From a virus: a stretch of 47,910 nt of DNA. The position numbers and the translations under genes were made by a program. A model generated the notes under the pieces. The model was not told where the DNA came from and searched no databases. It was given only the letters and a program-made list of their open reading frames with translations. Positions 38,888-41,897 of the stretch are shown piece after piece (position 1 is the first letter of the stretch; every line of letters starts with the position of its first letter). The stretch lies in the UHGV virus genome UHGV-1380528; one strand, 5' to 3'.

Positions 38888-38943
38888 GTCTAAATCCTGT
38901 TTTCACAATGACGTAATTATACCATTGACAGGGGGCACAAAAC

Positions 38944-38955
38944 TGACGTAGATTG
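38944..38955 (+). promoter_or_regulatory. conserved motif TGACGTAGATTG
   Basis: 30 nt upstream of ATG 38985; TTGACA at 38925..38930 upstream. Confidence 0.45.
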
Positions 38956-39799: not shown

Positions 39800-39823
39800 A
39801 CCCCCTTTCGGGGGTTTTCTTTA
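39797..39823. terminator. bidirectional rho-independent terminator
   Basis: ccccctttcggggg hairpin with T-runs on both strands. Confidence 0.7.
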
Positions 39824-40576
39824 TGCCGTAACGGTAACAGCACACTTGGTGGAGTCAACGTAATCAGGGCTTGTTGCCGAGTCAGTCACGCGGCAGAAGT
39901 ACGTACCAGCATCACCAGCGGCGGCGGTGGCCTTGGTGAACGTGTCGGTAGTAGCACCGCTGATAGGCGTAGTGCCTTTATACCATTGATAGGTATAAGG
40001 CTCGACACCGCCAGCCGCAACTACCGGACCGAGCGTCAGAGTGGCGCCAGTGGCAACGCTTTTGGTTGGGCTGATATCAGTGGTCAGCGTCAAATCTTCG
40101 ATGCTGGACACGTCAACGGTAGAGCCATCATACGGCTTGAATTCAACTGAACCGGTGATGATGTCGTTGGTGCCGCCATCGTAGCTCAGTGCGGTGATGT
40201 TGCAGTAAGCTACCACGACGGTGTTACCAGTCGTTTGACGAACCCACAGTGACGGCTGGCGACGCGCTTTTACTTCGGTGACAAAGTATTTGATGAGGTT
40301 ATGCACGCCATACTCATCAGCCTTGTCAGCCTTGCGAACCTCAAAATCACCGGAAATGGTGAGGTCTGCGGTAGTGACCAGCGTTGCGACAAAGCCATCA
40401 CCATCATCAGCCTCAGAAGTGGTGGTGCTTGGGCTGAAGTCGACGCCTTTTGAGGTCATGGGAGCAAAAAACTTCCAGTCTTCCTCTGCTGGCACAGCAT
40501 CCCAGCAGCCATCAGCCAGCTCAATGAGCGACTGGCGACCTGTGATGATGCCATTATCAATTGCACAAATAGCCAT
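39821..40576 (-). CDS. major tail protein with C-terminal Ig-like domain
   Basis: 251 aa; C-terminal YTYQWYKGTTPISGATTDTFT...GTYFCRVTDSA Ig-like (Big_2-type) decoration as in lambda gpV. Confidence 0.65.
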   Translation of the reverse strand: MAICAIDNGIITGRQSLIELADGCWDAVPAEEDWKFFAPMTSKGVDFSPSTTTSEADDGDGFVATLVTTADLTISGDFEVRKADKADEYGVHNLIKYFVTEVKARRQPSLWVRQTTGNTVVVAYCNITALSYDGGTNDIITGSVEFKPYDGSTVDVSSIEDLTLTTDISPTKSVATGATLTLGPVVAAGGVEPYTYQWYKGTTPISGATTDTFTKATAAAGDAGTYFCRVTDSATSPDYVDSTKCAVTVTA

Positions 40577-40621
40577 GTTTAGAATCCTCTGTGTTTAGCT
40601 AAACAATCGCATTATATCATG

Positions 40622-40650
40622 TTGACAGGTGTTGATTGGTGGTGTAGATT
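40622..40650 (+). promoter_or_regulatory. consensus sigma70-type promoter TTGACA-17-TAGATT
   Basis: -35 40622..40627, 17-nt spacer, -10 40645..40650; no protein gene for about 900 nt downstream. Confidence 0.55.
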
Positions 40651-41300
40651 TAACTTGCTGGTCGCAGAATGCAGGAAGATTGAAAGGTGGTATTCGGATT
40701 GACTGTTAATTTGAGACGCCAGCAACTATCAGGTAAGGGCATTGGGTTAGCGCAGCAGAGAAACCGTCAAAGTAGAGTCATAATCGAAAAGACGATTCTG
40801 TTTGGTCGATGCAATGAGTGCTCTTTCCGATAGTTTTCGTGGCGACTTTGCGGGTTTTTAGAAACTGACCACAAAGATAAATGCAAACGAAGAAATGTAT
40901 CTGGCAGTAGCCTAACGGCTAAACACCAGCAAGGTCTTCCGACTCCTTGTCAATGAATTCGGCGCATTGCGGCCCTGAGATGTGATTAATAAATCAGGGC
41001 ACACAACAGGTAAGAGCATTGAATGTCGCGTTAGCGAATGGACAAGGTTTCCTTGCAGTGCTCTTTCCGTTGTGGTAATGCGGCTATGCGCACGCGGCAA
41101 GGTAGAAATATACTCCCGATTGACTATGCCTGCTGGATTTACCGACCAGCAACCTGGAGGCACCAGGGCCACAACAATATATATGAAATGGGCTGATCAC
41201 CCTAAAGTCGTCGAACTGATGTCCTCTGAACTGCAATGCTAAATAACATATCTTTGATATCTTATTCTGGCACCAGATTCATGGTTGAAGCGGCGCACAT
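40651..41300 (+). ncRNA. noncoding leader / candidate ncRNA region upstream of tRNA cluster with two imperfect repeat units
   Basis: No credible ORF; repeated blocks caggtaagRgcattg, agtgctctttccg and cgattgact occur twice (about 40700..40845 and about 41008..41125). Confidence 0.35.
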
Positions 41301-41302
41301 AC

Positions 41303-41390
41303 GGATAGTTGGCTGAGAGGACGAAAGCAGTCGGTTGCTAACCGATAAACCGGAAACGGTTCACAGGTTCGAATCCTGTACTATCCGCCA
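41303..41390 (+). tRNA. tRNA-Ser (anticodon GCU), type II with long variable arm
   Basis: Manual fold: acceptor GGATAGT/ACTATCC, anticodon loop TTGCTAA, variable stem ACCG/CGGT, T-loop GGTTCGAATCC, encoded CCA. Confidence 0.75.
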
Positions 41391-41396
41391 CATTCA

Positions 41397-41473
41397 GCAC
41401 CATTAGCGTAATTGGATAGCGCAAGAGGCTTCTATCCTCTGGGTTTCAGGTTCGAATCCTGAATGGTGCACCA
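41397..41473 (+). tRNA. tRNA-Arg (anticodon UCU)
   Basis: Manual fold: acceptor GCACCAT/ATGGTGC, anticodon stem AGAGG/CCTCT loop CTTCTAT, T-loop TTCGAAT, CCA. Confidence 0.75.
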
Positions 41474-41476
41474 AAT

Positions 41477-41553
41477 TCCCGTTTAGCTTAACTGGTTAAA
41501 GCACCCGACTCATAATCGGATGATTACAGGTTCGAATCCTGTCGCGGGAACCA
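41477..41553 (+). tRNA. tRNA-Met (anticodon CAU; elongator/initiator/Ile2 identity unresolved)
   Basis: Manual fold: anticodon loop CTCATAA, T-loop TTCGAAT, acceptor with one 7:66 mismatch, CCA. Confidence 0.6.
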
Positions 41554-41571: not shown

Positions 41572-41769
41572 ATGAAAGAATTGTATGAAAAATTTAGACC
41601 GCTGGCGTCTGTAATTCTCGTTTTGATTATCTGTGTGAACCTGATTGCTCCGGGTATTTTACACTACAATAATTTTATCTATGGATTCATGGTTTTCCTT
41701 GCAGTATGTGTTATTTTATTGGCTGTGATTGGCGACCTTCTCGTTTGGTTAAAAAAGGTTAACAAATGA
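41572..41769 (+). CDS. small membrane protein (65 aa)
   Basis: Two hydrophobic helices. Confidence 0.4.
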   Translation: MKELYEKFRPLASVILVLIICVNLIAPGILHYNNFIYGFMVFLAVCVILLAVIGDLLVWLKKVNK

Positions 41770-41864
41770 CAAGCATTCTCAAAGCAATCAAGGAAGACCT
41801 CAGCAAGATGGTTGAGGCGGCATTCATCAAGGAAGAGCAGGCGCAAAAAGTTCTTCCTAAGTAA
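41766..41864 (+). CDS. small protein (32 aa)
   Basis: ATGA overlap with upstream gene; below ORF-track cutoff. Confidence 0.2.
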   Translation: MTSILKAIKEDLSKMVEAAFIKEEQAQKVLPK

Positions 41865-41867
41865 AAA

Positions 41868-41897
41868 TAACAGGCCGCATTAGCGGCCTTTTTTATT
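41868..41897. terminator. rho-independent terminator
   Basis: ggccgcattagcggcc hairpin plus TTTTTT. Confidence 0.65.

Follow-up and report, generated by a model that had tools for sequence, protein, structure and literature searches.

The sequence analysed here, referred to as the window, is the whole 47,910-nucleotide stretch of the virus genome UHGV-1380528, and our subject is the segment of it that lies between a sigma70-type promoter and a cluster of three tRNA genes and specifies a structured RNA containing a short reading frame of the kind found in transfer-messenger RNA (tmRNA, or SsrA). On its upstream side the segment is bordered by the gene for the major tail protein (39821-40576), which is on the minus strand and diverges from the promoter. 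The promoter, on the plus strand, consists of TTGACA (40622-40627) and TAGATT (40645-40650) with a 17-nt spacer between them. An earlier reading of the sequence (the original prediction) had placed these hexamers correctly, but its further claim that they form the best sigma70 match in the window was not borne out, as their score of 10/12 is equalled at 11 other sites. Both hexamers are invariant, and their flanks divergent, in an intergenic alignment of ten related siphoviruses with genomes of 46-48 kb, the hosts or host labels of which are Klebsiella, Shigella, Escherichia, Aeromonas and a bat-gut host; transcription would be expected to start near 40657. A second plus-strand site with the same hexamers, TTGACA-18-TAGATT, is located ~1.7 kb upstream (38925-38954) and may represent a promoter of the same class. 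As had been anticipated, no credible open reading frame (ORF) follows the promoter for ~650 nt. All of the ORFs overlapping 40650-41300 are short (86 aa or less), span segments that in relatives are hypervariable, indel-rich or missing, and have no family match in PHROG; hypothetical proteins have been annotated here in some GenBank records, and the annotated ORFs vary from one relative to another.

What the segment specifies is a promoter-driven and conserved structured RNA that carries a peptide-constrained tag template of the tmRNA type, together with pseudoknots, and that is co-oriented with the tRNA genes behind it. The folding energy of 40655-41302 is 4.7 standard deviations below that of shuffled sequences, and there is no terminator between the structured RNA and the tRNAs, the first terminator-like site downstream being at 41872-41889. 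The arrangement is best explained by a single long precursor that is driven by the promoter at 40622-40650 and that consists of a modular structured RNA followed by the three tRNAs. The original proposal of a structured noncoding RNA co-transcribed with the tRNAs is therefore supported by conservation, covariation and folding, but the tmRNA-like tag frame and the pseudoknots that lie between its two repeat copies had been overlooked. The modules of the RNA and the genes that follow are listed in Table 1.

Table 1. Modules of the structured RNA and the adjoining tRNA genes, in window positions
Feature	Position	Strand	Composition and remarks
5' closing-stem module	40655..40725	+	UUGCUGG/CCAGCAA; includes GAUUGACU; local fold -19.9 kcal/mol
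Scaffold hairpin H0	40724..40835	+	outer stem AACUAUC/GAUAGUU; inner stem GGUAAGGGCAUUG/GAGUGCUCUUUCC; variable insert 40745-40815
PK1-like element (putative)	40832..40876	+	stem 1 40832-40838/40861-40866; stem 2 40846-40853/40869-40876
Tag reading frame	40883..40915	+	GCA AAC GAA GAA AUG UAU CUG GCA GUA GCC UAA = ANEEMYLAVA*
Helix-5-like hairpin	40901..40929	+	outer stem 40901-40904/40926-40929; inner stem 40908-40912/40917-40921; stop codon in loop
H-type pseudoknot PK2	40930..40962	+	stem 1 40930-40934/40945-40949; stem 2 40939-40942/40959-40962
H-type pseudoknot PK3	40965..41000	+	stem 1 40965-40967/40980-40982; stem 2 40972-40978/40994-41000
Scaffold hairpin H1	41002..41075	+	outer stem CACAAC/GUUGUG; inner stem GGUAAGAGCAUUG/CAGUGCUCUUUCC; wobble U41019.G41058; insert 41022-41055
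Closing-stem multi-hairpin domain Y1	41069..41176	+	GUUGUGGU/GCCACAAC; fold -40.6 kcal/mol
Poorly conserved tail before tRNA-Ser	41177..41302	+	19-codon ATG ORF and small hairpins; common to VLCpiS13d only
tRNA-Ser(GCU), tRNA-Arg(UCU), tRNA-Met(CAU)	41303..41553	+	co-oriented with the RNA

The conserved core of the RNA (40832-41000) is built around the tag reading frame, which has neither a start codon nor a Shine-Dalgarno sequence and opens instead with the resume codon GCA at 40883, directly preceded by the A/U-rich AUAAAU (40877-40882), and closes with UAA at 40913. All ten of the aligned relatives keep the frame with differing peptides, such as ANDDVVLMAA in Sf11 and Bas81 and ANEDRFLMAA in SCNJ1-C, and a scan of IMG/VR with a 22-nt pattern taken from the resume region led to at least 119 further loci. 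A first tally gave 13 distinct tags, each of 10 aa. The full set of 129 IMG/VR and GenBank loci yielded 36 distinct matches of 36 nt to the tag pattern, one of which was a spurious regular-expression match elsewhere, and each of the 35 genuine nucleotide variants has exactly ten codons and then a stop as codon 11. This regularity is confined to the one frame, the stops in the other two being scattered. Among the differences between variants are purely synonymous ones (GCG/GCC/GCU/GCA at codon 10, GAU/GAC, CUG/UUG and GUU/GUA), and the stop codon itself may be UAA, UAG or UGA. Constant length, a constant stop position and synonymous change are, taken together, the signature of selection on a translated peptide, and ANDENYALAA, the ssrA tag of E. 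coli, is similar to the shared pattern AN[DE]xxx[LK]x[AV]A. In a permissive Rfam scan the models tmRNA_permuted (RF04321) and tmRNA (RF00023) matched 40776-40923 with 21.8 and 11.7 bits, respectively, each against a gathering score of 47; the matches of these two models and of beta_tmRNA are confined to the tag stretch and are all below threshold; the Rfam scan, which had been recommended at the outset, gave no tRNA-like match in 40560-41302. The case for identifying the core as a tmRNA-type mRNA-like domain is strong, and in our judgement the core is very probably tmRNA-derived and functional.

The structures that surround the tag were examined by taking helix strands at fixed offsets from two conserved unpaired anchors, T[ACT]TTCC and TGATTAATA, so that extraction was independent of pairing, and by sliding the 3' strand 1-3 nt as a control (for PK3 stem 2, by +1 and +2 only). 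The outer stem of the tag hairpin is paired in 91% of cases, versus at most 65% when slid, with compensatory changes at all three of the positions tested (e.g., CUGG/CCAG versus CUGA/UCAG). Stem 1 of PK2 occurs as five complementary types (CAAGG/CCTTG, TGAGG/CCTCA, CGGGG/CCCCG, CATGG/CCATG and CTGGG/CCCAG; 99% paired versus at most 62% slid) and its stem 2 as three (CCGA/TCGG, CCAG/CTGG and CCAA/TTGG; 100% versus at most 72%). For PK3, in the loop of which lies the conserved UGAUUAAUAA (40983-40992), there are four types of stem 1 (CAC/GTG, CAT/ATG, CAG/CTG and TAC/GTA; 100% versus at most 63%) and at least eight types of stem 2, of 4-8 bp (99% versus at most 55%). With so many compensated stem types and such clean slide controls, the two H-type pseudoknots after the tag hairpin can be regarded as established. 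Just 5' of the resume codon, where tmRNA has its PK1, sequence and position suggest a PK1-like element, which includes the universally conserved GUUUUCG (40833-40839). The examination of relatives for covariation, which had been suggested at the outset, shows that the region is conserved and that several of its helices have compensatory changes.

The core is by no means restricted to the relatives of the window. It matches 774 phage records by blastn as well as 780 of 5426 complete E. coli genomes (~14%), in which it lies mostly on P1-like or SSU5-like plasmids and in which PGAP has annotated nothing at the matching positions; the exact pattern is present in only two GTDB species representatives. 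When nine representative loci from seven phage groups were compared with each other by blastn, all against all, the block consisting of PK1, tag, PK2 and PK3 was the only one common to them. Core identity is ~70-85% across very different phage families, and the hairpins and tRNA-like domains are specific to each group. The core is always found in or beside a tRNA cluster or else in the late leader of lambdoid prophages. In Felix O1-like myoviruses (tag ANDNVFLAVA) it lies between tRNA-Ile and tRNA-Trp and has its own promoter, TTGACA-17-TATAGT; in Vi1-like Ackermannviridae (ANDNTFLAVA) it is upstream of the tRNA cluster, following ~1.5 kb of further structured-RNA modules; in N4-like Gamaleyavirus (ANEEAYLMVA) it precedes a tRNA gene; in phage P1 (ANDDLMMVAA) it comes after dmt and before tRNA-Asn/Thr; and in SSU5-like phage-plasmids (ANEEVYLAVA) it stands before tRNA-Asn/Tyr/Thr. 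The core is directly behind a strong promoter in relatives of the window, in the Felix O1-like locus L131 and in the loci L053 and L085.

In lambdoid prophages, which have several different tags, the element is placed between the Q-dependent late promoter and terminator and the lysis genes. In seven lambdoid-type loci (L013, L036, L015, L055, L031, L011 and L034) it is found between a PR'-type promoter/terminator and the holin gene, and from this late-leader position expression would be expected only after Q antitermination. The same position is the slot that is occupied by tRNAs and stx in Stx phages. The lambdoid slot also holds the prophage small RNAs (sRNAs) Pas and STnc100, according to a 2026 preprint that makes no mention of tmRNA (doi 10.64898/2026.05.13.724894). 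There is no Rfam match to STnc100, Pas, AgvB or AsxR in the window or in the lambdoid-type loci. A match to STnc100 was seen in a Vi1-like uncultivated viral genome (L065, 1118-1331; 48.7 bits against a gathering score of 47), ~1.1 kb downstream of the tag and inside an array of ~1.7 kb in which long hairpins and tRNA-like modules precede the tRNA genes.

Flanking the core in the window are two scaffold hairpins, H0 and H1, each with an outer stem of ~6 bp, a bulged A and an inner stem of 13 positions that includes one U.U mismatch and one U.G pair; the fixed length of the inner helix is near that of the 12-bp stack of acceptor and T stems. The original prediction had described three conserved blocks as parts of a unit present in two imperfect copies. 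All three blocks do occur twice (CAGGTAAGRGCATTG at 40730 and 41007, AGTGCTCTTTCCG at 40817 and 41057, and GATTGACT at 40697 and 41118), but they are not collinear and do not make up a linear repeat unit: CAGGTAAGRGCATTG and AGTGCTCTTTCCG are the two strands of one hairpin, and GATTGACT lies before the first copy of that hairpin and after the second. CCAGCAA is repeated in the region as GATTGACT is. Compared with most GenBank relatives, the window has an insertion of 175 nt between promoter and core, which carries the 5' closing-stem module and H0. The module is like part of the downstream domain Y1 and is missing from most GenBank relatives; the arrangement with module and H0 before the core is frequent among IMG/VR relatives and lambdoid prophages, and a hairpin of the H0 family occurs upstream of the core in many IMG/VR loci.

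Across the loci there are 37 distinct H stems in which 10 or more of 12 positions pair; none has 9, and the background is at 8 or fewer. Multiple compensatory changes separate these stems, as in GTAAGCTGCTTG/CAGGCAGCTTTC and GAAATAGTATTG/CAGTACTATTCC, and in 31 of the 37 the third pair from the loop is U.G, the G being carried by the strand that has its 5' end towards the loop and the U by its partner. The stems enclose inserts of 29-95 nt or longer, 62 of them distinct and falling into 39 unrelated families, some of which are common to unrelated phages; CCCUUAxGGGGCUUGGCUUAAAUGCA, for example, occurs in Moogle, a Felix O1-like phage, as well as in 24 lambdoid-type loci. In 44% of modules the insert starts with A, 6 of 73 inserts begin with ACC, and nine inserts of relatives contain a canonical T-arm. 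An identity of H as an integron attC site, a miniature inverted-repeat transposable element or a part of a diversity-generating retroelement was rejected: the conserved G.U pairs form in plus-strand RNA only and the outer-stem motifs are unlike attC (a reverse transcriptase was not searched for in the window). Also rejected was a pairing of the 3' strand of H0 with the 5' strand of H1 as a tmRNA helix 2, since H1 covaries internally where H0 stays consensus (loci L055 and L035) and H0 is absent from most GenBank relatives.

A canonical tmRNA would combine such a core with a tRNA-like domain (TLD), and none was found by ARAGORN at default settings or by Rfam. In minimal relatives no more than ~55 nt of transcript precede the resume codon, too short a leader for a canonical 5' acceptor strand and helix 2. 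A motif scan of the window revealed no T-arm with an alanine-type acceptor, and 5' of H1 one finds PK3 and a continuing helix in place of a T-arm. When ARAGORN was relaxed to 70% thresholds it produced hundreds of contradictory "permuted" calls, which were uninformative. Domain Y1, which follows H1, is topologically and loosely cloverleaf-like; in SCNJ1-C and pIS4-A the changes in its closing stem are G.U-compatible and the stem is kept, in the KP591P1 class the stem ends in CACCACAAC-A-CCA, and one relative (L031) has a true T-arm and ACCA at the corresponding position. We rejected Y1 as the TLD because, for all the conservation of its closing stem, the window lacks a T-loop, a G.U at 3:70 and CCA there. 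CCA is encoded in the tRNA genes of the phage itself.

Several other candidates for the missing domain, all from other loci, were considered and rejected. The D-armless tRNA-like element of Felix O1-like phages is an independent gene that is also found in T5-like, rV5-like and jumbo phages, and Moogle has a normal tRNA-Arg(UCU) gene at the same position. In E. coli O157 typing phage 8 (L131, 1665-1746) this gene exhibits C1-G72, G2-C71, G3.U70, A73, an encoded CCA and a UCU anticodon loop, which is to say alanine identity elements on an arginine-type anticodon; it is also present in KB57-like phages and is sometimes annotated as tRNA-OTHER or tRNA-Undet. Two long-range acceptor pairings, GCUGUUU/AAACGGC-UCCA in Vi1-like phages and GAGUGAU/GUCACUC beside a T-arm in L085, are within chance expectation and are without G3.U70. 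In the L085 locus, a 108-kb phage-plasmid-like contig, the T-arm (879-905, GCGGGUUCGAUUCCCGC) agrees perfectly with the tmRNA consensus and comes ~340 nt after the tag. GUCACUC-U-CCC follows this T-arm, and the complementary GAGUGAU lies just 5' of PK1, a topology like that of standard tmRNA without the CCA.

Genome announcements of Felix O1-like phages do mention an ARAGORN-found "ssrA", as does that of Citrobacter phage Moogle (PMC4319497). ARAGORN indeed calls a starred (low-confidence) "permuted" tmRNA in Moogle, using the same tag as the core, with tRNA-domain halves that lie more than 290 nt upstream of the tag and are separated from it by bona fide tRNA genes, and this call is a chimeric artefact around a real tag. 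The halves themselves (L137, ~640-730) consist of a T-arm, an acceptor 3' strand, GCCA, AACA, a complementary acceptor 5' strand and a D-arm-like hairpin, in an order that has the appearance of a tRNA-like gene in circularly permuted form or of two tRNA halves that abut.

How, then, might the RNA work? The reading that we prefer, to which we would give a probability of about 45%, is that it is matured from the tRNA precursor and that trans-translation then uses it as a tag template, which would make it the coding part of a split or otherwise non-canonical tmRNA. The precursor would be cut at the tRNAs and at the H hairpins by enzymes that process tRNA and double-stranded RNA, and the freed core would offer an alternative tag template to ribosomes that are rescued by trans-translation; SmpB, should the phage RNA use it, is assumed to be that of the host. 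A core that has no canonical tRNA-like domain needs an acceptor function of a non-canonical kind, for which our preferred candidate would be H, acting as a circularly permuted acceptor helix whose loop is excised as an intervening sequence. Excision of the loop, as happens with permuted tmRNA genes, would turn the conserved wobble into exactly G3.U70, and 39 unrelated insert families are what one would expect of an excised and unconstrained intervening sequence. We find more doubtful the broader proposition that this is a widespread class of phage RNAs representing the message half of tmRNA without its canonical tRNA half, which would reprogram trans-translation in infected Enterobacterales through either a T-arm-less H acceptor or an antisense 5' motif by which it would piggyback on host tmRNA or block it.

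A number of observations weigh against the tag-template reading. ARAGORN at default settings called no tmRNA in the window or in the 129 IMG/VR and GenBank loci, a TLD was matched by Rfam neither at E<=10 in the region nor at E<=1 in the whole window, and the core reaches the Rfam gathering threshold for no tmRNA model. The tRNA-like domains 3' of the core are not homologous between phage groups. Beside the putative acceptor 3' strand of H there is no T-arm, and CCA is not encoded there; 6 of the 37 H stems are without the U.G wobble, loci of Felix O1-like and N4-like phages have no comparable H, and elsewhere there are as many as three copies of H, located 5' or 3' of the core. The PK1 strands are nearly invariant, which places them beyond the reach of covariation, and the Felix O1-like and SSU5-like loci are without the GAAAC strand. 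Finally, the translation of the tag, the processing of the precursor and the source of the acceptor are all steps that we infer.

The main rival, which we consider unlikely, is that the RNA is a decoy or antagonist of host trans-translation, a TLD-less mimic that would titrate S1, RNase R and secondary SmpB sites and/or pair with host tmRNA, the phage tag never being translated. The lack of a TLD in cis would suit such a role, and there is a reciprocal precedent in the TLD-only tmRNA of mycobacteriophage DS6A, a form that has been reported to inhibit host tmRNA (PMC4131195, PMC11915505). The decoy could also draw on the 5' motif UAGUUUUCGU (40830-40839), which is a perfect 10-nt antisense of ACGAAAACUA in E. 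coli ssrA (positions 97-106, the tag codons GAC GAA AAC UA). We looked for the longest complement to ssrA, in place of a whole-length RNA duplex prediction that proved meaningless, and UAGUUUUCGU was the longest in eight of the nine representative loci; GUUUUCGU, part of the most conserved 5' motif of the core, is present in every phage group examined. The match is only marginally above chance, however, since 6 of 200 shuffles (3%) reach 10 nt for the window as a single sequence and the members of the family are not independent, and no covariation of the motif with hosts having other tag codons was seen, no proper test of such covariation having been made. A decoy could do without a reading frame, yet the family conserves the tag's length, stop position and residue classes amid synonymous changes.

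It is improbable, in our view, that the locus is primarily an array for the display of cargo, with the H hairpins as functional scaffolds for small RNA cargos (such as sRNAs or tRNA-like decoys against tRNA-targeting defences) that are exchanged by recombination at the conserved stems, and the core as one more cargo. Such an array would account for the sharing of several of the insert families by unrelated phages, for the canonical T-arms in nine of the inserts and for the sRNAs in the lambdoid slot (doi 10.64898/2026.05.13.724894), but the diversity of inserts is equally expected of unconstrained excised loops, and the tag frame and pseudoknots are left unexplained. The array is compatible with the tag-template reading and not exclusive of it.

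Long near-perfect hairpins are typical substrates of RNase III. Together with the constant association of the element with tRNA genes or tRNA-like elements, this speaks for a processing scaffold or leader that would only organise the maturation and stability of the tRNA precursor (as an entry point for RNases III, E and P), the core being a functionless relic. We think this quite improbable: it is the core and not the hairpins that very different phage families share, the core can be found in the lambdoid late leader with no tRNA gene next to it (e.g., L030), and a relic would hardly have kept a ten-codon frame in 35 of 35 variants or compensatory changes in three helices. Decayed tRNA genes, which the original prediction had entertained, or small protein genes are largely refuted for the window, despite T-arm-like sequences and low-threshold ARAGORN tRNA-like shapes in the H loops of some relatives and the hypothetical proteins of some GenBank records, by the failure of ARAGORN at permissive 85% thresholds and of the Rfam tRNA model at E<=10 to find anything tRNA-like in 40560-41302 and by ORFs that differ between relatives, fall in hypervariable segments and match no family.

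Beyond the structured RNA and its tRNAs, two small ORFs follow tRNA-Met on the same strand (41572-41864). They encode 65 aa, hydrophobic by eye, and 32 aa, and neither has a match in PHROG; a sequence resembling the 65-aa product is visible in Tbat1_6. The terminator-like hairpin behind them (41872-41889) is bidirectional, and the operon probably ends there.

A conserved tag without a recognisable acceptor implies either that trans-translation can use an acceptor more divergent or more split than detectors allow, or that phages manipulate ribosome rescue with half of a tmRNA. If the broader proposition of a reprogrammed trans-translation is true, the products of stalled ribosomes would receive a phage tag (..LAVA or ..LMAA) in place of ..ALAA, and the carriers would include such classical phages as P1, Felix O1-like phages and lambdoid prophages with the Stx-type slot. 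Annotation pipelines leave the element blank, apart from the few Felix O1-like phages in which ARAGORN makes a chimeric "ssrA" call, and the scaffold hairpins with their hypervariable loops are a second unexplained feature beside the core. The element is accessible in standard systems, namely P1, Felix O1-like phages, the BASEL phages Bas80 and Bas81, and lambdoid prophages.

The closest comparisons in matters of processing are the species 1 and 2 RNAs of T4, which are stable non-tRNA RNAs from a phage tRNA cluster, and the intervening sequences that RNase III excises from enterobacterial 23S ribosomal RNA. What is shared is the maturation of small structured RNAs from the precursor of a tRNA cluster, and conserved stems whose variable loops are excised; both provide an analogy of processing only, without homology of sequence or structure. 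With standard tmRNA (SsrA, RF00023) the likeness extends to the architecture of the coding part: an A/U-rich spacer leads to a GCA resume codon, the ten-codon tag is of the AND/E...AA type and ends with a stop codon that a helix-5 hairpin holds in its loop, and the tag is preceded by a putative pseudoknot-like element and followed by H-type pseudoknots. Unlike standard tmRNA, the core has two pseudoknots after the tag rather than three and is without a 5'/3' acceptor stem, T-arm and ACCA end. The full-length tmRNAs of phages (cluster C mycobacteriophages, Bacillus phage G and huge phages) are likewise phage-encoded and often near tRNA genes; they differ from the core in being complete and detectable by ARAGORN and Rfam, and the core occurs even in phages of ~46 kb. 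In a survey by the tmRNA Website in 2014, the phage tmRNAs were those of mycobacteriophages and Bacillus phage G, plus the TLD-only form of DS6A (PMC4131195). The DS6A form and the organellar tmRNAs that have no coding sequence (CDS) resemble the core in that only one half of tmRNA is kept, but it is the opposite half: they retain the tRNA-like half and lose the tag, whereas the core retains tag and pseudoknots without the tRNA-like half.

Nothing relevant came from searches of the literature for the tag peptides, the motif strings and tmRNA-like RNAs of phages. The 2025 tmRNA database has standard, permuted, intron-containing and no-CDS forms and 79 phage sequences, but no CDS-only form (PMC11915505). 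A tag with pseudoknots and no canonical tRNA-like domain is a new tmRNA variant, a CDS-only form not described in the open literature searched or in that database. A further close comparison is with the two-piece permuted tmRNAs of alpha- and beta-proteobacteria and cyanobacteria (RF01849-51, RF04321), the genes for which are transcribed into RNAs that tRNA-processing enzymes cut into two pieces (PMC11915505). The phage element departs from them in having no T-arm 5' of the putative acceptor 3' strand and no encoded CCA, in a hairpin that can lie downstream of the coding part (a different permutation point) and in several copies, and in being borne by phages rather than chromosomes. What the two have in common is a hairpin adjacent to the coding part, an unconstrained loop that may be an excised intervening sequence, and a conserved G.U at the third pair from the loop, and it is the permuted models of Rfam that give the best, if still sub-threshold, matches to the phage core.

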